NCBI GenBank assembly: GCA_028534125.1
Contig: CM052816.1
Coordinates: 17,610,001 to 17,674,000, forward strand
Reading direction: 5' to 3'
Source: Lama glama
Lineage: Eukaryota
Length of the DNA stretch: 64,000 nt
This document shows positions 3,316 to 55,500 of the stretch, piece after piece. Within the stretch, counting starts at the first letter, position 1. Every line of letters begins with the position of its first letter. Under the pieces are notes generated by a model, which was given only the letters and a program-made list of their open reading frames with translations, was not told the origin of the DNA and made no database searches. Position numbers and translations under genes: made by a program.

Positions 3316-6300
3316 CTGTTTTTTACTGTGCTAAAAATGTGTAACTTGAAATATACCTTATGTGCATTTTCAGTGTACAGTATAGTATTCCCTACATGCA
3401 TGTTGTTGAACAGCAGAGCTCTAGAACTTCTTTGTCTTGTGTGACTGAAACTCTGTACCTACTGAATAGAAGTTCCCATGCGTCCCTTCCGCCAGTCCCT
3501 GGCAACCATCCTAATTCATGCTTCTAAGGTTTGACTACTTTAGATACCTCAAAAGTAGAATTATGCAGTGTTTGTCCTCTATGACTAGCTTATTTCACTT
3601 AGCATAATGTCCTGAAGGTTCACCTCACTAGGGAGGGTCATGTGATTTTTATCCTTCATTCTGTCAGTCACATTGATTGGTTTTTATTTGTTGAATCATT
3701 CTTGCAGCTGAGGGATAATCAGCACTTACTATGTGATCCTTTTCATGTGCAGTTAAATTCAGGTTGCTAGTATTTTGTTTAGGATTTTTGCATCTATATT
3801 CATCACTTACATTGGCCTATAGTTTGATTTTCTTGTATTATCTTTGTGTGACGTTGGTATCAGGGTAATGCTGGCCTTATAAAATGAGTTTGGAAGAAGT
3901 GTTCCTATTCAGTATTTTGGAAGAGTTTGAGAAGGATTGGCATTAATTCTTCTTTAAATGTTTGGAATTCTCTAGCAAAGCCATCTGGTTCTGGGGTTTT
4001 CTTTGAGGGAAGGTTTTGATTACTGATTTAGTCTTCCTACTCATAGATCTGTTCAGATTTTCTGTTTCTTCATAATTCAGTCTTGCTAGGTTGTGTGTTT
4101 CTAGGAATTTTTCTGTTTAATTTAAGTTTTGGCTTTTGACTATTGACAGTATTCTCTTACAATCTTTATTTCTATAAAATTCATGGTAATGTATCCTACT
4201 TTTATTTCTGATTTTACTAACTGAGTTTCTTTTTCTTTCTTTTTCTTTTTTTTTTTTGCTTAGCTAAAGGCTTGTCAAGTTTGTTGATCTTTCCCCAAAA
4301 CCAACTTAGTTTCATTGATTTTTTTTCAGTTATTCTCTTCTTCTCTATTCTATTTATTTCTGTTCTAATAGTTATTTTGTTCCTTCCGCTAACTTTGAGC
4401 TTAATTTTTTTCCTAGTTCCTTGCTGTATAATGTTAGGTTGTTTATTTGAGCTTTTGCTTCTTTTTTAAACCAGGTATTTACTGCTATAAGCTTTGCTTT
4501 TAGTATTACTTTTGCTGTACCCCGTAAGTTTTGGTATGCATTTTCTGGGTCAAGGTATTTTCTGATTTCCTTTTTGATGTCTTTGACCCATTGTTTGTTG
4601 TATTGTTTAGTTTCCACACATTTTTAAATTTTCTATTTTTCTTTCTGCTATTCACTTCTAGATTAACTCCATTGTGATTAAAAAAGATACTTCATATGGT
4701 TTCAGACTTCTTAAATTTGTTGACTAACATGTTATCTGTCCTTAAGACTATTCCGTGTGCTGTTGAGAAGAATGTATATTCTGTTCTTGTTGGGTAGGAT
4801 GTTCTATATATGTCTTTTAGATTCATTTGGTCTATAGTGTTGGTCAGTTCTATTTTTTATTGATCTTCATTCTGGATGATTTATCCATTTTTGAAACTAG
4901 AGTATTAAGATCTGTTTATATTATCATATTGCTGCTTTTTCCTTCAATTCTGTCAATATTTGTTTCATATATTTGATTTCTCTGATGTTGATGCATATAC
5001 AATCATCCTTCAGTATCCACGAGCTCCCATATATTCCAAAATCTGTGGGTGCTCAAGTCCCTTATATAAAATAGCATAGTACAATTAATACAGTCTACCC
5101 TTTGTATCCATAGGTTTCACCTCTGCAGACTGAACCAACTGTGGATGGAAATTTCAGTCCACGGTTGAGTTTGTTGAATCCGTGGATGCAGACATAGAGG
5201 ACGAGCTGTATATTTATTAAAAAAAAAAATCTGTGTATGAATGGACCTGCATGATTCAAATCCATGTTGTCTGAGGGTCAACTGTATATTTGTAATTGTT
5301 TTTTCATCCTGGTGAATTGACTTTTTTATCATTATATAGAGTCTTTCCTTGTCTCTTTTGATACTTTTTATCTCAATGTCTTTATTTTGTATGATTAAGT
5401 ATGATCATCTATGTTCTCTTTTGGTTCCCATTTGTGTAGAATATCTTTTTTCATCCTTCAGCATTCAGCCTGTGTGTCCTTAAACCTTGAGTGAGTCTCT
5501 TTTAGACAGCATATTGTTGTATTAAAAAAAAATCTATTTAGAGACTGTCTTTTTGATCAGGGAGTTTAAATTCATTTATACTTAAAGCAATTACTCACAG
5601 GGGAGGCCTTAATATTGCCATTTAAAAATTGTTTTTCTTTCTTGTAGCCTTTTTGTCCCTGTTTTCCTCTCTTGGTATATCTTGTTTTTGTTTCATTAAA
5701 ATTTTTTTTTGTATTGAGATGCTTTGATTCCTTTCTCAGATAATTTCTTTGTGATCATTGTAGGACTTAAATAAAACATAATGATAATCTATTTTGAGCT
5801 CATAACTTCAGTCACATACAAAAAGTCTACTCTTTTATTTCTTCCACAGTGTACTTTGTATTATTGGTGTTATAAATTAAATCTTTTTATATAGTGCATT
5901 CATTAACTTATTTTTTTTGTTATTTTGTCTTTTAATTCTTATATCAGAATTAAAGATTATGTATGCACCATCATTGCAGTAGTATAGTATTCTGTATTTG
6001 TGTATAAATTGACTCTTGCTGGTGAGATTTATACTTTGATATGCTTTCTTGTTGCTGTATACCATCCTTTCATTTCAGCTTTCATTTCAACTTGAAGGAC
6101 TCCCTTTAGCTTTTGTTTTAGCACAGATCTAGTGGTGATAAACTCCTTCAGCTTTTGTTTGTCTCACAAAGTCTTTATTTTTCCTTCATTTTTGAAGGAC
6201 AGTTTTGGTTGATATAGTATTCTTGGTTAGCAGTTTTATTCTTTGAGCTTTTGAAATATAGTATCCAACTGCCTTCTGGCCTGCAAGGTTTCTACTGAGA

Positions 6301-7911
6301 AATCCACTGATAGTCTCATGGGAGTTCCTTTGTACATCATGAGTCAATTCTCTCTTGATGCTTTCAACCTTCTTTGATTTTTGACAGTTTGATTATAATG
6401 TGTCTTTGTGGACTCCTTTGGATTCATGTTTCTGGGCTCTTTTGGACTTCTTGAATCTTGGATGTCCATTTCTTTCCCCAGTTGGGAAGTTTTCAGCTGT
6501 AATTTCTTCAAATAAGCTTTCTGGTCCTTTCTCTCTTTTGTTTTGGGAATACTACAATGTGTATATTGATCATCTTCTTACTGTCTCATAACTCCATCAG
6601 GCTTTCTTCACTCTTTTCCATTGTTGTTATCTTTTACTATTTGCTCCTCTAACTGGATAATTTCAAATGACTTCTCTTTAAATTCTCCGATCTTTTTTTC
6701 TGCTTGATCAAATCTGCTATTGAACCTTTCTAGTGAATTTTTCAATTTATGTGTTATGTCTTTCAGTTCCAGAATTTTGACTTGGCTTTTCTTAAAATTC
6801 TCTGTCTCTTTGTTGATACTCTCATTTTGTTCATGCATCATTTTCCTGAGCTTGTTGAGCATCTTTATGGTGGTTGTATTGAATTCATATACCTCTATTT
6901 TTTGTGGGTTGGTTTCTGGAGATTTATTTTGTTCCTTTGGTTGGGCCGTGTTTCTTCATGTGACTAGTAACTTTGTGTTGGGATGTGCATATTTGAAATA
7001 AACACTCATTTCTCTCAATCTTTACACACCACATTCTATAGGGAAAGACTGTAATCAATCAACCAGGCTGAATATTTGGGGAGCCTCTCAAACCTTTTCT
7101 GGGCATGTGTAATCTCTGGGCTTGTGCATACAATTTCCCAGTTAGAGAAGTTTGCCAGTTTCTTTTCCAGCAGTTAGTTGTCTCTTGATCCTTCTCATGT
7201 GTGTCTGTGGCACTGCAGGTTCTCTGGCACTGCTACAAGCCACTGAGCACTGTTTTGTCTCTGTGGCCCCCTGGTACCCAAATTGTGCCATTTCTGTCAG
7301 TGCTCTGAGTCATGTGAGTCAGAAACCAGTCCCTCAGGCAGCCCTCTGAAAAGCTAGAATGTTTGATGTGTGTTTCACTGTTTTCTTCTCCCAAGGGAGG
7401 AGCCACAAGCTGGGCGGTTTCTCCCCAGTTGCAGCGAGCTGTGTTGGTTTCTCTTTGCAGTGTTACAGGTTCTCTGGTGTTGCCACAAGCTGCTGAACTC
7501 TTCTTTGTTCTCTGCTGCTCCCAGGCATCCAAGGTATGCTGTTCCTCATCAGTGCTCTGAGTTAGGTGAGACAGAAGCCGCTCCCTTGAGCGGCCCGCCA
7601 AAAGCCAGACCGCTGATGTATGTTCCACTGTTCACTCTCCCTTCCAAGGGAAAAGCTACAGATTGGGGTTTTCCTCCCAATTGTGAGCAGTACCAAGTCT
7701 AGGGAGGGGCTGACATGGCTGTAATGAAATGACTTTTATTACCCCTTTTAATGCATTTCTTTTTGGCTTTTAGCTTGCCTGGGGTACTATGACTTTCTGA
7801 TTGATTTATGGAGTTCTTATAAAGGCTTTTTGGACCCTCTGTTGTTCTTAAGTTGGATTTTCTGTCAGGAAATGAAGTCTTAGACTTTGTTTTGCCATCT
7901 TGCTGATGTCA
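3316..7911 (-). mobile_element. Old LINE-1 (L1M/L1MA-like) with both termini, internally deleted in the 3' half of ORF2
   Basis: 3'UTR-like 3320-3625. ORF2 remnants (MNIDAKILNKILA-like at ~3760-3805; ORF 4372..4617 WVKDIKKEIRKYL..YQNL; EN-like MIKKSIHQDE at 5332). ORF1 coiled coil 6608..6862. 5' terminal CAAGATGGC (YY1-type) at 7894-7902. Confidence 0.9.
5000..5284. mobile_element. TcMar-Tigger non-autonomous element (MER2/Tigger2-like) nested in L1 ORF2
   Basis: Flanked by TA at 4998-4999 and 5285-5286. Contains gctcaagtcccttatataaaat (MER2-like) and ends gagggtcaactg. The L1 sequence resumes on both sides. Confidence 0.85.
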
Positions 7912-15900: not shown

Positions 15901-17244
15901 ATGTGAGTTGGGTACATTAGTCTGAAGGCTTTTTGTGTGTCTGTAAAAAACTTGGTTGAATCAGTCAAGTGCTATCTTTTTAGCACTCTTGCTTGCCCTG
16001 CACTGGCTGGAGTCTGGTTGGGAATACAGAGCACTCCAGGCTGTTACCCCGGCTCTGTAGCTAAGTTTCTCAGGGGACATCATAAGAATTGCTGACGACT
16101 GCTGTTTGTTGAGCATTTACTAACTGCCAAGCACTGTGCTCAGTACTTCGTGTATATTATCATTTTAATCTTCATGGCTCTAGAATAGCATCCGGTTTCT
16201 TCTTGACAGTGATCTCATCCTGTCATTATGTAAATGCAGACCTCTTTCAGTGCAGGGTGAAAGTGCTCCCTGAATCAGCACTTGGCAAGGTCGCGGTGCA
16301 CGAGCCCCATAGTGCTGGGTTCTGGGCTTTAGATGCCTGCAGTCACCCTTCAGCACAGACGCCCCAGGGTCGGGCCAGGCATCCACCTGTTCTCCGTCCA
16401 GTCCCCGATTCTGAAGGTTGTGAGCTAGTCCACCCAGGCTGCAGTGGTTTTTATGATGTCTTCCCTGGGGTCTGCTCATCCTTACTCCCTGTGTCCCTGA
16501 AGTTTTCATCTGAAATTTTGCATTTTATCATCAAGTGTCAGAGTCTTCCTCTGCTTCCTACTTTTGTCAACCATTAAGCGTGCAACCCACAATGACTAAA
16601 AACTGTTGACCAGAACACAAACTCCATGCTGGAAAAAGAGGCCACAGCAGAGTAAACACACTGGAGTAGGATCAACTCACGATCGTGTAGTGGAGTGCAC
16701 ACTGGCTGAGAGACTCAGCTGTCCCATGAGCCGTGCTGGTTCTCTCTGCCTGGGAACGTGATTAGCTCTTGGAGAAAAATAGTTGCACATTACAGCTGTA
16801 CTGGTGGGGCTGGTGTATACAGACATTTTGGGTTGTTAGAAAAAGATTTCACAGGCCGTTGAAAGATTTCCGAAGCAGATGGGCTCTAGCATTAACAAAG
16901 ATCTGCTGCCCTTCTGGTCTGTGTGCCTCAAAACAAGGACTGTGTCTTTCTGTCTGTTTTCGCTTGATTTTCTTTCTAGCTCCTGGCACAGTATTTGGAA
17001 AAGCAACAAATACGTATTTGGGACTGAATATATAAACTGCCATATAAACTATCCTCATTTTACAACCAGGGAAATCGAGGCTCAAAGCAGTTGGATAAAC
17101 ATCCATCAAGTGATAGAGTTGGATAAGGATGGGGGTCTGTCTGGACACCTGAGTGGTCCTGCCTGAGGGTGTGTGTGAGCCCAGTGTGTTCCGAGACTAC
17201 TCAATTTTCCAGAGAGAGTAAACTCAGAGACCTGCAGTAGCACA

Positions 17245-18030
17245 AGGCTGGATGGATTCAGGTTTTGTGGGGTCTGAAGTTGATACCGTGTAGGGGGCCC
17301 TCTTAATGAAAAAGAACACTGAATTGTGTGTATACACACATTTAGAAGTAAAATTATTTGTTGTTGAGGCTGAGAAAGTAAATCGTTGCAAAATTACAAA
17401 TTTTATAAGGCCGGCACATATTGCAATTATGACCTAGTCCAGAAAATAACAGATTGATATTATAAGTTAACTGCCTGACACACCTCTGTAATAAATTTTT
17501 TTTTGCTACATGCTCTTTGGTTGCTTCTTTATATGACATTAATTTTATAACATCTTCAGAGAGATTAGAAAGATAATTCAGTCTTTCCTCTAACATGGCT
17601 GATGAAATTTGTTTTTTTATTTTTTTGTATATATATTTTTTTCTTGAAGTATAGTCTACAGTGTTGTGTCAATTTCTGGTGTGCAGCACAATGCTTCAGT
17701 CATACATGAACATACATGTATTCATTTTCATATTCTTTTTCACCAAAAATTACAAGATACTGAATATAGTTCCCTGTGCTATACAGTATAAACTTGTTTA
17801 TCGGATTTTGTGAGAATCCTCCTGCATTTCGAAATCAGAGTCACTCTGCCAGAGTTAAATAGGTGTTCTGTGCGATTCAGTGGGTCTGTAGATGTAATTC
17901 TTGGGGTATTTGTAGGAGAGGGCGAGCGGTGAGTCTCTGCTCTGCCATCTTGACACCTGCCCCGGGTTTGTTATTTTTGATGATTGGGTGCACGAAGCAC
18001 AAGACTTCTCACACAGATCTCTTCTGCCTA
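17245..18030 (-). mobile_element. hAT (Tip100-like) DNA transposon fossil with transposase C-terminal remnant, split by the L1 derivative
   Basis: ORF 17354..17596 MLEERLNYLSNLSEDVIKLMSYKEATKEHVAKK resembles the end of the hAT dimerisation domain. MER53-like terminus (ggattcaggttttgtggggtctgaag) at ~17253. An IKN-like upstream motif continues beyond 17967. Confidence 0.7.
17612..17963 (-). mobile_element. Short bipartite L1 derivative: ~160 bp L1 5' end fused to ~180 bp L1 3' end plus A-rich tail
   Basis: 17635-17801 is closely similar to the L1 3' end at 20400-20578. 17802-17963 reads on the minus strand GGGGCAGGTGTCAAGATGGCAGAGCAGAG..CTCTCCTACAAATACCCCAAGAATTACATCTACA, resembling laurasiatherian L1 5' termini. 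Flanks are tttgtttttt / tttgttattt. Confidence 0.8.
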
Positions 18031-18657
18031 CTGTTGGTCCTGCCGTACCCCAGGGATTCTGATTAATTTGATGTCATGTGACTCCCACCAAGGAAGGAAG
18101 GAATGAAGCTTGGGTGTTCGTAGGACCCTCCTGTTGGGAGAGAGCTTCCATTTTGAATAGACATTAACAAGTGCTGTTGGACATGTCAGATTTCTTACGG
18201 TTGTCCTGTGGCCTGGATTCTGTCTCTGTATGTCTCAGACCTTGTTTCTTCCCCACCCATGTGCTTCCAGTGCTGGGCCCTGTAGGACATGTTCCTATCT
18301 TGACCTGACTTCCAACACTGTTCTTAGGTGTTACCATGAAAGCTGGCGAATGGGATCATTACTGAAAGCCACCCTCATACCATGGTAATTTTGCCTAGTG
18401 GTAATTTTGCCTCTACATAGAAGTGCCCAGAAGCTGCACAGTCCATCCCGCTGAATCCTCCTTGGGTATATCTCCACCTGGTTCCTCTTGGTTGGATTCC
18501 AGTGGTAGCTGAACCAGGTGGAATGTGACAGAGGGGGCTGTGGCCTGGAAGGAGAGGAGGTCTTAATTGATTGTGGTAACAAGATCTTACTTCTACACAT
18601 TTTATGTAAACATGTATCCATGTGAGCACATTGCTAGGCCGTCTCAAGGTCCTGGAG

Positions 18658-18819
18658 GGAGTATGTTCATGCAGGGGCCTGAGGCTTATTACCTCATGAG
18701 TATGTGCACAGAGGGACCTGAGGCTTATTACCTTCATGAATTATGTGCACGGAGGGGCCTGAGGCTTATTACCTTCATGGAGTATGTGCACAGAGGGGCC
18801 TGAGGCTTATTATTTTCAC
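18658..18819. repeat. Minisatellite, 4 copies of a ~40-bp unit
   Basis: Unit ~gagtatgtgcacagaggggcctgaggcttattaccttcat repeated four times with few substitutions. Confidence 0.95.
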
Positions 18820-20383: not shown

Positions 20384-21511
20384 TTATTTTTAATGTATAT
20401 ACTTTTTTTCTTGAAGTATAGTCAGTTTACAGTGTTGTGTCAATTTCTGGTGTACAGCACAGTGCTTTAGTCATACATGAACATACATATATTTGTTTTC
20501 ATATTCTTTTTCACCATAAGTTACTATAAGATATTGAATATAGTTCCCTGTGCTATACGGTATAAATTTGTTGTTTATCTATTTTATATATAGTAGTTAG
20601 TATTTGCAAATCTTAAACTCCCTTCCCACCCTCATCCCTCATCACGTTAACCATGAGTTTGTTTTCTATGTCTGTGAGTCTATTTCTGTTTTATAAGTAA
20701 GTTCATTTGCCTTTTTTTTTTTTAGGTCCACATATTAGTGATATCGTATGGTATTTTTCTTTTTCTTTCGGGCTTAGTTCACTTACAATGACATTCTCCA
20801 GGTCCATCCATGTTGCTGCAAATGGCATTATTTTGTTATTTTTAATGGCTGAATAGTATTCCATTGTATAAATATACCATAGCTTCTTTATCTAGTCATC
20901 TGTTGATGGACATTTGGGTTGTTTTTTTATGTCTTGGCTATTGTAAATAGTGCTGCCATGAACATTGGAGTGCATGTATCTTTCTGAATTAAAGTTCTCT
21001 TTGAATATATGCCCAGGAGTGGGATTGCTGGATCATATGATAAGTCTATGTTTAGTCTTTTGAGGAAACTCCATAATGGCTACACCAAACTACATTCCCA
21101 CTAACAGTGTAGGAGGGTTCCCTTTTCTTCACAGCCTCTCCAGCATTTATCACTTGTGGACTTTTGAGTGATGGCCATTCTGACTGGTATGAGGTGATAT
21201 CTCGTTATTTGCATTTCTCTGATAATTAGCAACATTGAACATTTTTTCAAGTGCCTGTTGGCCATTTGTATGTCTTCATTGGAGAATTGCTTGTTTAGGT
21301 CTTCTGCTCATTTTTGGATTTTTTCTTTTTGTATTAAGTTGTATGAGCTGTTTATATATTCTGGAAATGAAGCCCTTGTCCGTCTCATCTTTTGCAAATA
21401 TTTTTTGCCATTCCATATGTTGTCTTTTTGTTTCGCTTTTGTTTCCTTTGCTGTGCAAAAGTTTATAAGTTTAATTATGTTCCGTTTGTTTATTTTTGCT
21501 TTTATTTCTAT
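20384..21511 (-). mobile_element. Young 5'-truncated LINE-1 (3'UTR + ORF2 C-terminus) with 12-bp target-site duplication
   Basis: TSD CCTGTACCTGTT at 20372-20383 and 21512-21523. ORF2 remnants [22 protein letters not shown] and [28 protein letters not shown]. Confidence 0.93.
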
Positions 21512-22639: not shown

Positions 22640-25005
22640 AACCCGTGGGTTTAGGTGTGCCAGAAGAAACTGAAAGGGAACTCACCCTTGAAAGAAGAGT
22701 ACTGCACTTGGTAAAATTTTTATCCCCTCCAGTCACGGCAGTTAGTGGGTAACACGTGGGTAGTTAGAAGTCAAGCAAAAAGCTGTGCTGCTACTGAGTT
22801 GGGGGGTTGAAAGACAGAGTTCAGAGCTGCCAGAACAGCTGGAAAATGAGGGGAGCTATTTCTGAACAGAGAGAACCACAGAAGGGGGGAGTACAAAAAC
22901 CACTGTGAACTTTGCCCAAATCATTGGCTGACTCCTGAGCTCACACGAATGGAGGAGACTCCAAGATTCTCAGCAAAAAGCAACAGCCTTAAGGCTGAAG
23001 AAATGGAAGTTTTAGCTCGTACCCATTGCAGGGGAAACTGAATTTGAAGTTTGAGTCTAGCCAAATTAACTGCTAGAACATAAAAATAAATACTTTCAAA
23101 AATAACGTAAAAGAATCCAGATCCTCAGCAATGTATCCTACTCAATATCCACTGTACAATAAAACTTGCTAGAGGAAACAGGAACGTATAAGTTATGGTT
23201 AAGAGACAAAGCAAATAAAGCTGAGTCTGAGATAATCCAGATACTGGAGTAAGAGAGAAATACTTTAACACAACCAGTATAAATGTGTTCAAAGACTTAA
23301 AGGAAAAAGTCCTAATAATAACAGACTGAGGAATCCAAGCAGAGAAATGAAAACTATTTTTAAAATGAAAATTCTAGTATTGAAAAGTATAGTATCTGAA
23401 ATAAAAAGTTTATTAGATGTTGTTAAGAACAGATTGGAAGTGGCAGAAGAAAGAGTCCCTGAACCTAAAGTTAGATCAATAAAAAATCAATCTGAAAAAT
23501 AGAAAAAAGATAGAAAAAAATAACAGAGCGTCAGGAACAGTGGGCAATATGAAGTCTAATATATATGTAATTGAAATCTCAGAAGGAGGGAGGGAGAATG
23601 AGGCAGAAAAGATACTTGAGGAAATAATGGCCTAGCATTTCCTAAAATTGGAGGAAGAAATGAACTTAAAAATAGAGCAAGCTCAGTAAACCCAGAGCAA
23701 GGCAAATACAAAGAAAGCTGCATGTAGGCACATTATAGTCAAAGTGTTAAAAACCAAAGAAAGAGAAATCTTGAAAGCAGCCACAGTGGGGAAAAAGACG
23801 CATTACTTATAGTGAGAATGATACTAAAAACCTGACTTTTTATTAGAAATAATGGATACCACATGGAAATGGAACATTTAGAATAGTAAAAGAACACTAA
23901 AAAAATTTGTCACCTCTTAAAATCTGTATCCAAGAAAAATATCCATCAAAAATGAAAGTGAAATATTTTCAGAGAGGTAAAAGCAGAACATTTGTCACCA
24001 GCATAACTGCACTGCAGGATATATTAAAGGAAGTTCTCCAGGCTGAAGGAAACTGACACTAGATGTCAACACAGATCTACAGAAATGAATGTCTTCTCTT
24101 GCTTTATTCAAAATCTGTTGATCTGTTTAAGACATATAGCTATTTAAAATAAAAAGTACACAGTGCATTTGGTATATAATGTATGTAGATGATGGATATA
24201 AAACATATGTACATATATTCATATTTATTAACATCAGCAATAGCTCATAGGAACAGAATAGGGGAGGGGGAAATGTGAGACCTGAGGTCAGCTGTATAAT
24301 TATTACATTAAATGTAAGTAAACGTTCACTTAAAAGGCAGAGATCGTCAGACTAGATAGAAAGGGAAGACAACTAAATGCTGTCTACAGGAGGCACACTT
24401 TAAATATAGAAGAATGGATAGGTTGAAAGCAAAAGCATGGAGAAAGATCTACCATGAAAAAAATAAGCTTAAGAAAACTAGAGTGGCAAATTAATATTAG
24501 AAAAACAAGGAGTATCAAGACAAGGAGTATTCTCTGAGACAAAGTGCGACATTCTTCATAATAAAAGTGTCGATTCACCAATGAGACCTAGCAATTGTGA
24601 ATGTGTATGTTGTGTGTGTGCTTGATAATATAGCTTCAACATACTTGAACAAAAACATACACCTATTGAGAGACATAGATTCTTCACTGTAGCTGGAAGT
24701 CTCAACCCTACTTTCTCAGTAATTGGTGGAGCAACCAGAGGAAAAACATCAGAATACTGAAGATCTGATAAATACTGCCAGCCATCTTGACCTGTTAGAT
24801 TTTTGTAGAACACTCGACCAAATAGAAGAGTATATTTACTTTTCAGGTGGATGTGGAACGTTTGCTGAGGGAGACCATCTTGTATCATAAAGTGAGGCGC
24901 ATCTTTCAAAGATTGAAATCTTAGAGTTCTTTGACCACAGTGGAATTGAATTAGAAATCCATATCAACCACATCCCAAATATATGGAAATTAAATCACAC
25001 TGTAT
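22640..25005 (+). mobile_element. Ancient LINE-1 5' portion (5'UTR, ORF1, ORF2 endonuclease remnants), 3' part missing
   Basis: A-rich, with ORF1-like gaaaagatacttgaggaaataatggc and aaatcttgaaagcagcc, and EN-like tgctgtctacaggaggcacacttta and tttgaccacagtggaattgaattagaaat. Heavily disrupted. Confidence 0.85.

Positions 25006-39550: not shown

Positions 39551-39595
<45 letters not shown>
39551..39595. repeat. (TG)~22 microsatellite
   Basis: Perfect TG run. Confidence 0.98.
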
Positions 39596-45480: not shown

Positions 45481-47335
45481 AGGAGCAGCTTTCCCCAGTC
45501 CCTGTGGTCAGCACCTCCCGTGTAGGGTGGTAGGGAGGCAGGAGGGAGGTGATAGTTAATACCCAGTGTTTTATACCCTAAAAGGCAGCATCTGGATGTT
45601 CAGGGGCCTGCTATACTTGGGTGTGGCAGGAGTGGCATTCTGAGAAAGATGGTGGGACCTGATTAATTAGGAATTTGTGATACTTGGACAAAGCTGGGCC
45701 TCAGGCCAGCGTACTTTGGATTTTCTGTAAAGTACAGGTTTATGTGTGCCAAGATGGCAAAGGTCTTATTTGGTATGTCAATGGAATGGACCTTTTCAGA
45801 GTTCCTTTATCTGTTTTCTACATGGAAATTAATGATTATGTAGGAATTTTACTTGTTCAGAGTAGGCCGACTTCACTTCATAGTGAGTGAGTCGTAATGG
45901 GAAACTTCAGTTTACTTAGAATTAAATGATACGTAATAGCCAACAGTGGTTCAAAATGCATCATTGGTTGCACAGAACAGCTCTGTGGTATATTACCTTT
46001 TTTCCACAAATGGAGTCACTAAATCTTAGAGAGTGGGAGCCTGACCTTTAAACAGACGAGCTTGCATCTCATGTTTTCCCATTTCATTGCATTTTTTCTA
46101 AGCCACTCTTCATACATAAGACTAATACAATTGCATGCATTTAAAATATTTCATAACTATTGTTCCCAAGTGTAATCAGTCTCCCTTCATTTGGACCTAT
46201 TTGGTTAGGTTCAAATGCACAAGATGTCACATTATTGAAACTTTAAACACACCATTCTTTCTGTAATGCCTGTTTCTCAGTGTTCCTGGTTCATCTCAGT
46301 ATTAAAAACCTCTGGATGTGGACACAAAAGTTCGTATTTATTAAGTCATTTTATGTACTTAATAGTATCCCAGGCAGTTTGCCACGTCCTCGTGAATCAT
46401 TGTGACCCATCCTCCAAGGTAGGTGTAGCGGTCTTGTCCTGTGGAACCACAGCTCAGAAGCTGAGGGGGTTGTGCAAGGCCACCGAGCTGGTGAGTGCTC
46501 AGGGCAGGATCTGAACCCGTATCTGCTTCAGAGCCTCTCCTGTTCGTAGCATCTCCTCTGCCTTTAACTCCATAGTCCTGCCTGCTTCTCACCCGTCTAG
46601 ACATTCATAAGCCCCCTCCTGGCCAGTTCAGACGTTTCAGTCATTGTACTTGTGAGATCAAGGGTGTGGATGGCTTTGAGTCTGGAGACACCCCTTGTCT
46701 TGGTCAGAGTACAGATGGAGCATCATAGATCCATTTGTATTCCCACAAGAAAAGCCAGATGTAGGGCATGCTTTCTGGAAGGGACGTCAGACTCAGTTTT
46801 TGTCTCTGAGAAAGCCCAAGCCAGCAGTCACTCCCCCTGACCCCAGCTTGGATGGATAGACGGGATAGACAGACAGTCCTGGGGAGGGTGAGCGCTTTGT
46901 GGTGGTTATAACCCCTTAATTGGCTGGAGGGGCCATGACAACCCTATTCATTTTAAAACCCAGGACCCTGGACCCATGTCTTTCTCAGGTTTTAGACCCC
47001 TTCAAGCTATTTTGGAGCTGCAAGGGAAAACTGTTTCTTTGCAGCAATGTAGAAGGCCTATTACTCTTGCTCTCTGGTGTCATCACAGGAGACATTTATT
47101 GAATTTCACCCTTTGGACCAATGGCACAGGAAATTCTCAGAGGTAATAATCACGACTGAGAGTTTGGATTTAATCAGGATGTTGTTAGCTGTTCTACAGT
47201 AATGACACAGATCACCAGAGGACCCTCAGGTTTGCCCGCTCTTAAATTATTCCACTGAGAATCTAATGTTATTGCCTATGAACTAGTGAACGAGGGGACC
47301 TTTTCAAGGGGATGATGGTCAGTGACTTAAGGGAG

Positions 47336-50400: not shown

Positions 50401-50650
50401 AATTTTATTGGGCCTGAAGGAAAATCAAGGGTGAGGGCTCTCCAAGTTCCGCCCTTTACTGGTCTCTAGATCAGACCCTGAGGTCCCCACAGCGGGAAGG
50501 CCCTGGGATACAATGCAGCACTGGGATAAGGTAAGGGCAGGCACGCTGCTTCCCATGGAGGGATTTATAACTGAGAAAACAGAACTGTGAACAGCACAGG
50601 AAGTCCTGGGTCTGTTTTAGGATAACATAAAATGTACACTTTACTTAAAT

Positions 50651-51150: not shown

Positions 51151-53672
51151 CCCTTTACTGGTCTCTAGATCAGACCCTGAGGTCCCCACAGCGGGAAGGC
51201 CCTGGGATACAATGCAGCACTGGGATAAGGTAAGGGCAGGCACGCTGCTTCCCATGGAGGGATTTATAACTGAGAAAACAGAACTGTGAACAGCACAGGA
51301 AGTCCTGGGTCTGTTTTAGGATAACATAAAATGTACACTTTACTTAAATACAATATATTTAGAAGACTTAGAAAATAAGATACAAGAAGAGCTGGGCCAG
51401 TTTCCCTGGCTCTTAGGCTCTGGAGACATGACCAGCTAGCCATCTTTGTCCCTAGAGTGTACCGACTGTTCAGTGGGAATCAGGGATGACATGGGCCTCT
51501 AGAAGGACATTCTTTTATCTTTGGCTTTTTCCATGTGAATTTGAATGCTCCCTCACCAGACTTCCCGCAGAGACAGAGTGGGTTGATGGGCACAGCCCCC
51601 GCTGCTTAGACTGGCCACGTATTCAGACCAGTCCCAGCTGCCGGTACAGTGTGGGAGGCTGACCTGTGAGCTCCAACCTCACTGTAGCAGGACCCGCTAA
51701 GCAGTCCCCTCCCCCGTGCTCACTGACCACCCCCTAGGTAGGCTCTGGGGTGGTTCTCCCCCCGTGAGCACCCTCCACGTGTTCAGGATCTTGGCCCCTG
51801 ATAAGCCGTTTCTCTCTCAGCTTTAGCCAAAGCAGTTACACCCAAGGTTTTCTCAGCTTTTGGCTCATTGGGTTCTGCTTTGGCCATCAGCTTTCCTAAA
51901 GGCTGGGCAAAAGCAATCAGATTCAGGGAATCATTTTCTTTCTCGATTGGCCTTGCTGCGCAAGAGGCTATTTGAAGGGCTTATTTTGCATAATGAGCTT
52001 TGACTCAAGGTGTACTGTCGCATTTGGGCAGCAATAAGGCAATACTACATTCACAATGACTTATAAATATTCTAATGCAGATATCTGCTTTTAGAGGCTT
52101 TATATTTAAAACCATGATTTTTCCCTAAGAAACACGTAAAAATGGCAAGGATAGTTAGCCTGGAAAAGTGACTAGGTCCAGAAGAATGCTTCACATTCCA
52201 TCCAAGCCATCACGTATGTTGAAATCATTAGGAAATAGTTCTTGAGACTTGCTTGAACCTTCCTTGGACATGAAAGAGAATGTGACATGTGAAATTAAAG
52301 GAAAGGAACTTGTCTTTGGCTCCAGCGCTTCCCTGTCAGACACACATCCTAAGCTTCCAAGGACTTCTGTGTATTAGAACAGCATGTTCAAGTAGAAAAT
52401 ATTTTACAGGATTCCAGATCGCTGTTGGTGTGATGCCACCGTCTGGAGCTCAGAGGGCACTGATGAACCACTATTGGAAGGATGGATGTTTTGTTATTTA
52501 TTTTTTTTCCAGTGGTGAGGATGAATTCTTCTTGGGTATTTCTTCCCTTGCTCTTATGAAAAGCAGAGTGTCTAGATAACTTGCTTGTGTTTAGGACCAA
52601 GAGGATATTGGCTGTCAAACTGGAGAAATCAGGTGCTAAATTTCCCACTGATCATCCAGCCCTTAACTTAGAATCATTTAACTCTGGCTTCTGAGTTTGA
52701 AACCATATAGTTCAAAAGATTAGGATCCTATTTAAAATAATAAATGAAGAGAGATGTGGCAGAGGGGAGGGATTCTTTTCAACTTTCTCACTTCCGAACT
52801 GGGTAGATGAGAAAGCCAGTTACACCATAAAATTAAAGCCAGAGCAAACTGTGCCAATTCCTTGGAATTAAAAATAATTTAATGCCAAATCCCAAGGATC
52901 CAGAGGCAACTGATCATGTTTATTCATGCTCTGGAAAATGGAATCACCACCCAAGAAGTCATGTTCTGATTTTACTCTAAATCCAGGTTCTTAAAATCTA
53001 TTGCAGGGCTTAGGTGAACTCAACAAGAATCTAATAAAGCCAGGTAACTGAATGACACAGAGGCCAATAAAATTCACAGGAAATGGTGACGGAGATAAAC
53101 TGCAGCAGGAGATAGGCTGGACTAATTGTGCACTTTTGATGTAAATGAACTTTTCTAGAAGAGAAGTTGAGGCCTCATTTTGGACCACTTTCTGAAACTG
53201 CAGTGTGCAGAGTACCAGCCCAAAACACATAGAGTAAAGAATTTGAGTACTTTCAGGAGGAAATTAACTACATAGGGGCACATGCCCTAAAAATGGGGTG
53301 GGGATGATGTCCACGGGTGGGGCCTCTGTGTGCTGTAAATTGTCGAGCTGAGCTGACGGAGCAGGTGTGCTCGGCCAAAGTGGGGACGGGTGAGCGCTGA
53401 CAGGGAGGGCAGAGTGGATAGTCGAGGTTTGGAAGGAAAGGGTTATTAGACGTGGAGAAGACGTTAAAGTGACAGTGGAGAAGTGAGTGGCCTAGCCCAT
53501 TGCAAATCCAGACTGATGAACTGTCTAAGCCTGCATGTACGAGAGACACGGTTATGAATCAACCAGATGGGCCAGCCTTTGTTTTTTATCTGTACATGCC
53601 CAGAACAAATAGTATTAAGCTAAATATATGCCTATGGTTAATTCTAACATTTGAATGGCCCTCTCTTTGTAG

Positions 53673-55184: not shown

Positions 55185-55500
55185 TTATTCATTCATACAT
55201 ACCTACATTTATTCATTCTCAAACACCCATGGACCTAATGCTCATTCTCAAACACCCATGGACCTAGTGCTCTGTGTTCAAGCACCAAGGTGGTTGCTGG
55301 GGATAAGGCAAAAAATCTGTGGTGCCCGCCCAGGAGGAGCTCAGAGTGGGGAGTGGGGAAATAGCTCCGTCAGCAATTGCAGTAGGCTGTGCTAATGACT
55401 GTGATGCAGGTGTGTGTAGGTGAGTCTTTAGGTGGAGACTTGGTGAGCATGCGTGTGTGTGTGTAGGGGGCAGGTCCCAGGGAAGGCTTTCTTTTGGAGG
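55185..55500 (-). mobile_element. LINE-2 3' fragment
   Basis: ttattcattcat(n) start, ctgtgttcaagcacc..gctggggataag. Confidence 0.6.
55213..55270. repeat. 29-bp tandem duplication
   Basis: tcattctcaaacacccatggacctaatgc / tcattctcaaacacccatggacctagtgc (1 mismatch). Confidence 0.95.

Follow-up and report, generated by a model that had tools for sequence, protein, structure and literature searches.

A 352-nt mini-L1 that is probably a retrocopy of a spliced L1 RNA lacking both open reading frames

Results

Location and layout of the mini-L1

The window, by which we mean the whole 64-kb stretch of DNA that was analyzed, consists of non-coding mammalian DNA in which dispersed repeats are few (four self-match pairs at E 1e-5), and no Rfam match was obtained at gathering scores across its length. 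SINEs are scarce in it, as described in PMC8605555; together with the pig-like L1 head reported below, this suggests a camelid host. Of 24 sequencing runs compared with 16900-18600, 14 contained 0.85-0.92 of the sampled words; RNA runs contained 0.07-0.26, a fraction that we do not take as a sign of expression. On the minus strand, at 17963-17612, lies a short element that a preliminary description of this DNA had presented as a junction of two L1 ends, and the coordinates and letters given there were reproduced in full. The element, designated the mini-L1, is 352 nt long and holds an L1 5' end (head) and an L1 3' end (tail), both in the sense orientation. The head comprises 162 nt with 49% GC and five CpG, and the tail comprises 190 nt with 27% GC and no CpG. 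Six-frame translation yielded short frames only, and the frame that spans the junction was without a Pfam match (five frames searched, 0 of 5 matched). The RNA fold of the mini-L1 was marginal (z -2.16, 2 of 100 shuffles). The features of the element and its immediate flank, in window coordinates, are as follows.

17802..17963, minus strand: head, nt 1-162 of an L1 5'UTR, the putative upstream exon (five exact pig L1 blocks; 69% amino acid identity over 45 residues to P0002, a protein match)
17944..17952, minus strand: YY1-type motif CAAGATGGC, element nt 12-20, typical of mammalian L1 5' ends (PMC5381506, PMC2912911)
17801..17802, minus strand: head-tail junction, a putative exon-exon junction, with a 1-nt ambiguity (G common to both parents)
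17612..17801, minus strand: tail, the final ~190 nt of an L1 3'UTR, A-rich at its end (88.5% to 20572-20382)
17621-17616, minus strand: AATAAA within the tail, read from the sequence
17964..17966, minus strand: three C bases 5' of the G-run, possibly 5' extra nucleotides
17967..17978, minus strand: possible 5' copy of an A-rich target-site duplication of ~12 nt, whose counterpart falls within 17608-17624 (the match is not significant)

Assignment of the head to an L1 5' end

The assignment of 17802-17963 to an L1 5' end was borne out by the YY1-type motif at element nt 12-20 and by five ordered blocks that are found in pig L1. A G-run followed by CAAGATGGC occurs a single time in the window, at 17963-17944, and was matched in 1 of 100 shuffles. 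The motif lies at nt 12-22 in human L1 (PMC2912911), and an opening made of a G-run and a YY1 motif is the pattern in nearly all mammalian L1s (PMC5381506). The L1 consensuses in the supplement of PMC5381506 were compared over the first 400 nt of each record. Five exact blocks of the head (9, 14, 11, 11 and 9 nt) were collinear with the pig L1 consensus, and four of the five were unique among the records as compared over that length. The spacers between the blocks measured 15, 19, 10 and 11 nt in the mini-L1 and, as counted by eye, 17, 21, 10 and 11 nt in pig L1. According to PMC5381506, mammalian L1 5'UTRs share no significant similarity beyond the YY1 motif; despite this statement, pig L1 is clearly collinear with the head. 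The L1 5'UTR is 1,892 nt long in pig and 3,229 nt long in cow, and the mini-L1 keeps only 162 nt. Extra nucleotides are frequent at the 5' ends of full-length L1s (PMC2912911), and the three C bases at 17964..17966 may be of this kind.

The relationship of the head was also seen at the protein level. A 63-residue frame across the junction, searched against 1.84 billion protein representatives, gave two matches, P0002 and P0003. P0002 (E 3e-10) was matched in one frame and represents an unspliced relative: it follows the head to the junction exactly and then continues with 69 residues of different sequence. A further protein-level search with the same frame returned P0002 as the sole match among 18 candidates, and two other such searches gave no match. 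Viral contigs held no relative of P0002, and the ESM Atlas matches for it were all below 0.9.

Two other candidate relatives of the head were dropped. P0003 (E 3e-4) is a Cys-rich protein of 377 amino acids and is unrelated. The head of an older L1-like element at ~7900 was rejected as a relative when 1,669 of 2,000 shuffles scored as high.

The tail is an L1 3'UTR with a counterpart in the window

The window holds a second, unspliced L1, referred to here as the reference L1, that served for comparison with the tail. Its features are the following.

20384..21511, minus strand: separate 5'-truncated L1 comprising the end of ORF2 and the 3'UTR, the unspliced reference (human L1 ORF2p matches)
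20596..20602, minus strand: branch-point motif TACTAAC, whose branch A (20597) precedes the junction-homologous base by 19 nt
20579..20580, minus strand: acceptor AG (TAG), the first AG past the branch-point motif, ~145 nt downstream of the ORF2 end

Frames of the reference L1 matched solved structures of human L1 ORF2p at residues 1073-1143 (E 4e-23) and 1220-1274 (E 3e-15), and the element is flanked by an exact 12-nt target-site duplication (21523-21512 and 20383-20372). The tail matched the reference L1 at 88.5% over 192 columns (E 8e-65), which established it as L1 3'UTR and the mini-L1 as L1 sequence on both sides of the junction, in sense order. Of the 168 columns in the body of the tail, 147 were matches, 11 were substitutions and 10 fell in gaps. 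The L1 had been called young, a word that holds here in a relative sense only, with the mini-L1 and the reference L1 differing at 11 of 158 aligned bases. The gap columns form three gaps of 3, 3 and 4 nt, each within a short repeat, in which the bases are absent from the mini-L1 and present in the reference L1; these may be private slippage or family-diagnostic changes.

The junction was found where it had been placed, at 17802/17801, with two qualifications. Its position is ambiguous by 1 base, since the G to its left is common to both parents, and one 3-nt repeat unit is absent from the mini-L1 directly to its right. The A-rich end that had been described is likewise present, but most of it is also found in the reference L1, and thus little of it is demonstrably untemplated. 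The A-rich 12-mer at 17978-17967 matched the 3' end of the mini-L1 at 11 of 12 positions. Because 69 of the 349 A-run sites in the window scored equally, a target-site duplication is compatible with the sequence but unproven. The flank below 17612 resembles, by eye, what we take to be the decayed C-terminus of a hAT transposase; if it is such a remnant, the target site accounts for some of the A-rich end.

The tail begins at an acceptor-like site with a perfect branch-point motif

The observation that the 3' part begins right after an AG was upheld: the TAG of the reference L1 ends at 20579, and the junction-homologous base, 20578, lies inside the 3'UTR, ~145 nt beyond the end of ORF2. In the reference L1, 75 of 1,139 positions are preceded by an AG, and an AG by itself is therefore weak evidence. 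Upstream of the acceptor AG is a perfect TACTAAC whose branch A lies at -19, and no other AG intervenes between the motif and the acceptor. Such an arrangement was found at 1 of the 71 scored AGs in the reference L1 and at 14 of 9,457 AGs in the window, and it arose in 526 of 200,000 random draws of 3'UTR composition. Because the motif was recognized after looking, the strict count must be read as post hoc. The looser CTRAY was found at 4 of the 71 AGs in the reference L1 and at 763 of the 9,457 in the window, and YTNAY at 29 of the 71. Both the branch-point motif and the acceptor AG were seen in one paralogue, the reference L1.

According to PMC5378181, branch sites are mostly located 19-35 nt away from the acceptor, and yeast has TACTAAC as its strong consensus. 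The acceptor is without a pyrimidine tract (7 pyrimidines among 17 positions), and the caveat raised on this point in the preliminary description stands, if probably offset by the branch-point motif. A strong branch point could compensate for the missing tract; PMC5378181 states only the converse.

The head ends at a donor-like site found in related L1s

The head ends 42 nt past its last conserved block. When aligned by eye, cow L1 has G/GTAGGA after nt 167, 43 nt past the homologous block, and pig L1 has G/GCAGAA after nt 166, 44 nt past the homologous block. In this alignment pig L1 matches the final 24 nt of the head at 14 of 24 positions, without gaps. Dog L1 has G/GTAGGA after nt 166 and, by eye, has little else in common with the head. 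In the supplement of PMC5381506, G/GT is seen by eye in cow, dog and panda L1 and G/GC in pig L1 at about nt 166-167 of the 5'UTR. To judge from these alignments, the donor-like site at ~nt 166-167 is possibly conserved.

P0002 provided a second view of the donor side. Past the junction it reads Gly-Arg, which requires G at +1 and AG or CG at +3/+4, an agreement with a chance of 0.017. Position +2 is not fixed, and 12 of the 48 allowed hexamers begin with GT. The head thus appears to end at a donor-like site common to relatives, with the donor dinucleotide seen in those relatives rather than in the direct parent.

Other features of the window and pattern scans

The motif CAAGATGGC occurs four times in the window, compared to 0.81 expected, and two of the occurrences are at L1 5' ends. 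No L1 head was found around the occurrences at 24781-24789 (minus strand) or 45750-45758 (plus strand). The minus strand at ~3800-7910 carries what we take to be an older, decayed L1-like element, with presumed ORF2-like remnants below the frame at 6608-6955. This element has CAAGATGGC at 7902-7894, a 71% internal repeat at 7216-7683 and a coiled-coil frame at 6608-6955; Pfam and PDB searches gave no confirmation for the frames of it that were tried. It is interrupted by a ~280-nt block of different composition at ~5003-5283, which we take to resemble the remnant of a small DNA transposon.

An exact 199-nt duplicate (50452-50650 and 51151-51349) flanks a gap of 500 N and is most likely an assembly overlap artefact. 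Tandem repeats were found at 18659-18812 (period 41, 3.8 copies) and at 55213-55272 (period 29, 2.1 copies). The stretch at 39551-39595 is a microsatellite, (TG)22.

The mini-L1 pattern was unmatched in viral contigs, GTDB genomes, plasmids and phages, non-mammalian collections that are silent on its copy number. A metagenome match, L001, was considered as a second copy and rejected: the two motifs had matched by chance, and the contig, in which the mini-L1 reached a best E of 0.14, is unrelated and apparently fungal. Positions 1473-3427 of L001 hold a 474-aa frame that resembles, by eye, a fragment of a fungal transcription factor.

Discussion

Origin of the mini-L1

The signals on the two sides of the junction point to RNA splicing, and we consider it very likely that the mini-L1 arose in this way. 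A full-length L1 would have been transcribed from its own promoter, and the spliceosome would have used a donor that follows nt ~162 of the 5'UTR and an acceptor that lies ~145 nt inside the 3'UTR. A single intron of several kb, consisting of the rest of the 5'UTR and both ORFs, would thereby have been removed. Since neither L1 protein is encoded by this polyadenylated RNA of ~350 nt, a different L1 would have to supply the ORF2p that copied it in trans by target-primed reverse transcription, as is known from L1 biology. Because the RNA is short, it would have been copied whole, with its 5' end included. The resulting copy would most likely be dead on arrival, one of many products that arise independently from the recurrent splicing of active L1 RNA, as the human SpIREs do. 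This dead-end reading follows from the small part of the 5'UTR that was kept and from the precedent of human SpIREs, in which the retained L1 start does not preserve promoter function: the first 97 nt are kept, promoter activity is lost and the elements are called dead ends in PMC5860796, and transcription is reduced about 30-fold in PMC5860798. The full proposal, namely that the mini-L1 is a retrocopy of an L1 RNA that lost both ORFs as one intron and that it is a dead end, is on the strength of its sequence the likely one.

The preliminary description had likewise proposed a 5'UTR donor spliced to a 3'UTR acceptor and mobilization in trans. That part gained support from the branch-point motif at the acceptor, from the donor-like sites in cow, dog and pig L1 and from P0002. 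It had further suggested a SINE-like, promoter-bearing family, for which we found no support, the element having kept 162 nt of the 5'UTR.

A family of that kind would require that a splice-born mini-L1 master was itself transcribed again and re-amplified, giving an ORF-less, Pol II-transcribed, SINE-like L1 family. The retention of the L1 start site and the YY1 motif would suit such a master, and ORF-less bipartite families are known in other LINE clades (PMC5786205). The three segments of 3, 3 and 4 nt that are absent relative to the reference L1 could be diagnostic of a family, although they fall in short repeats and may be private slippage. Human SpIREs that keep the first 97 nt lose promoter activity (PMC5860796; about 30-fold less, PMC5860798), and the 162 nt kept here come from a 5'UTR of 1.9-3.2 kb; both speak against continued transcription. 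Even a high copy number would fit recurrent splicing too, since short RNAs would escape 5' truncation and many copies would be expected. We therefore regard re-amplification as unlikely. In its boldest form, the mini-L1 would stand for a family that arose through splicing, not deletion, and amplified from its own masters, the first in the L1 clade to be bipartite and without ORFs. A donor at ~+165 common to cow, dog and this lineage and, in the 3'UTR, a perfect branch point would together let one splice strip both genes, and the GC of pig L1 could be an escape from it. This form of the proposal is equally doubtful.

Origins that do not involve splicing were also weighed. An internal deletion that occurred in the DNA once the element had inserted, or a jump in which the reverse transcriptase left the 3'UTR for the 5'UTR of the same RNA, would be in keeping with the 1 identical base that both parents share at the junction and with a 5-nt A-rich match, offset by 1 base, that lies just left of it in both. 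The frequency of AG in the reference L1 (before 75 of 1,139 positions) also leaves room for such an event. The A-rich match, however, was not used as a crossover, because the crossover lies beyond it and the element keeps head bases past it; a microhomology-mediated deletion at this match was rejected for that reason. A deletion or jump would also have had to break at the sole AG among 71 with a perfect branch-point motif and, on the other side, at the position of the cow and dog G/GT, and we consider this origin improbable.

Two adjoining events, a 3'-truncated L1 head beside an independent, 190-nt 5'-truncated L1 tail, would explain why no significant duplication surrounds the whole unit. 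Short 5'-truncated L1 tails are common. The placement of both breakpoints at splice-like sites would then be chance, and no duplication belonging to the tail only was seen by eye in the last bases of the head, which makes this the least probable of the origins, one that we give very little weight. The spliced, ORF-less retrocopy thus remains our preferred account.

Significance and comparison with known elements

If the splice account holds, the mini-L1 indicates that one splice can strip all coding sequence from a mammalian L1 and that the remnant can still be copied. Repeat annotation would be expected to break such an element into two unrelated L1 fragments. If copies of this kind are common, they would form a fossil record of how frequently splicing inactivated this L1 lineage and would bear on splicing as an L1 restriction (PMC5860798). 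They would also make it testable why ORF-less bipartite families have been reported, in the account given in PMC5786205, for RTE, Ingi, Vingi and R2 and not for L1. Neither a 5'UTR-to-3'UTR spliced L1 nor a camelid element of this form appeared in the titles and abstract openings of the papers listed by literature searches confined largely to open-access work.

Several classes of known elements share part of this structure. SINEs have a head derived from tRNA, 7SL or 5S RNA and a Pol III promoter; the head of the mini-L1 is L1 5'UTR and had no Rfam match. In L1-mediated processed pseudogenes, a spliced, polyadenylated Pol II RNA is copied in trans by ORF2p. The template there is a host mRNA, whereas in the mini-L1 it would be the L1's own spliced RNA. 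Processed pseudogenes are treated in the introduction of PMC5860796. HAL1 (half-L1; PMC5786205) is, like the mini-L1, a non-autonomous, internally shortened L1 derivative, but it keeps ORF1, whereas the mini-L1, at ~350 nt, is without any ORF of L1 origin.

The ORF-absent bipartite LINEs (Bov-A, RTESINE, MAR4, RIME, NARTc and the Vingi derivatives; Kojima 2018, PMC5786205) are closer in layout, with 5' and 3' ends only, no ORF and reliance on the proteins of the parent LINE. As described in that source, they are reported only from RTE, Ingi, Vingi and R2 and are ascribed to internal deletion. The mini-L1 differs in belonging to the L1 clade and in having splice signals at its junction, and it is seen here in one copy.

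The closest known relatives in mechanism are the SpIREs, the spliced integrated retrotransposed elements of human L1 (Larson et al. 2018, PMC5860796), which account for 131 of 6,609 full-length copies. As is proposed for the mini-L1, they derive from an L1 RNA that was spliced from a donor near its 5' end and retrotransposed; they keep the L1 start and 3' end, and their junction coincides with splice signals that include a branch point close to the acceptor. The published classes (97/622, 97/790, 97/853 and 97/976) are spliced within the 5'UTR or into ORF1 and keep ORF2 (PMC5860796). With an acceptor in the 5'UTR or ORF1 and a retained ORF2 as the mark of these classes, the mini-L1, at 352 nt in total, falls outside them: its acceptor lies in the 3'UTR, both ORFs are lost, its mobilization would have been wholly in trans and its host is not a primate. 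The mini-L1 is probably a retrocopy akin to the SpIREs but more extreme, of a new splice class in which both ORFs are lost, and probably a dead end.
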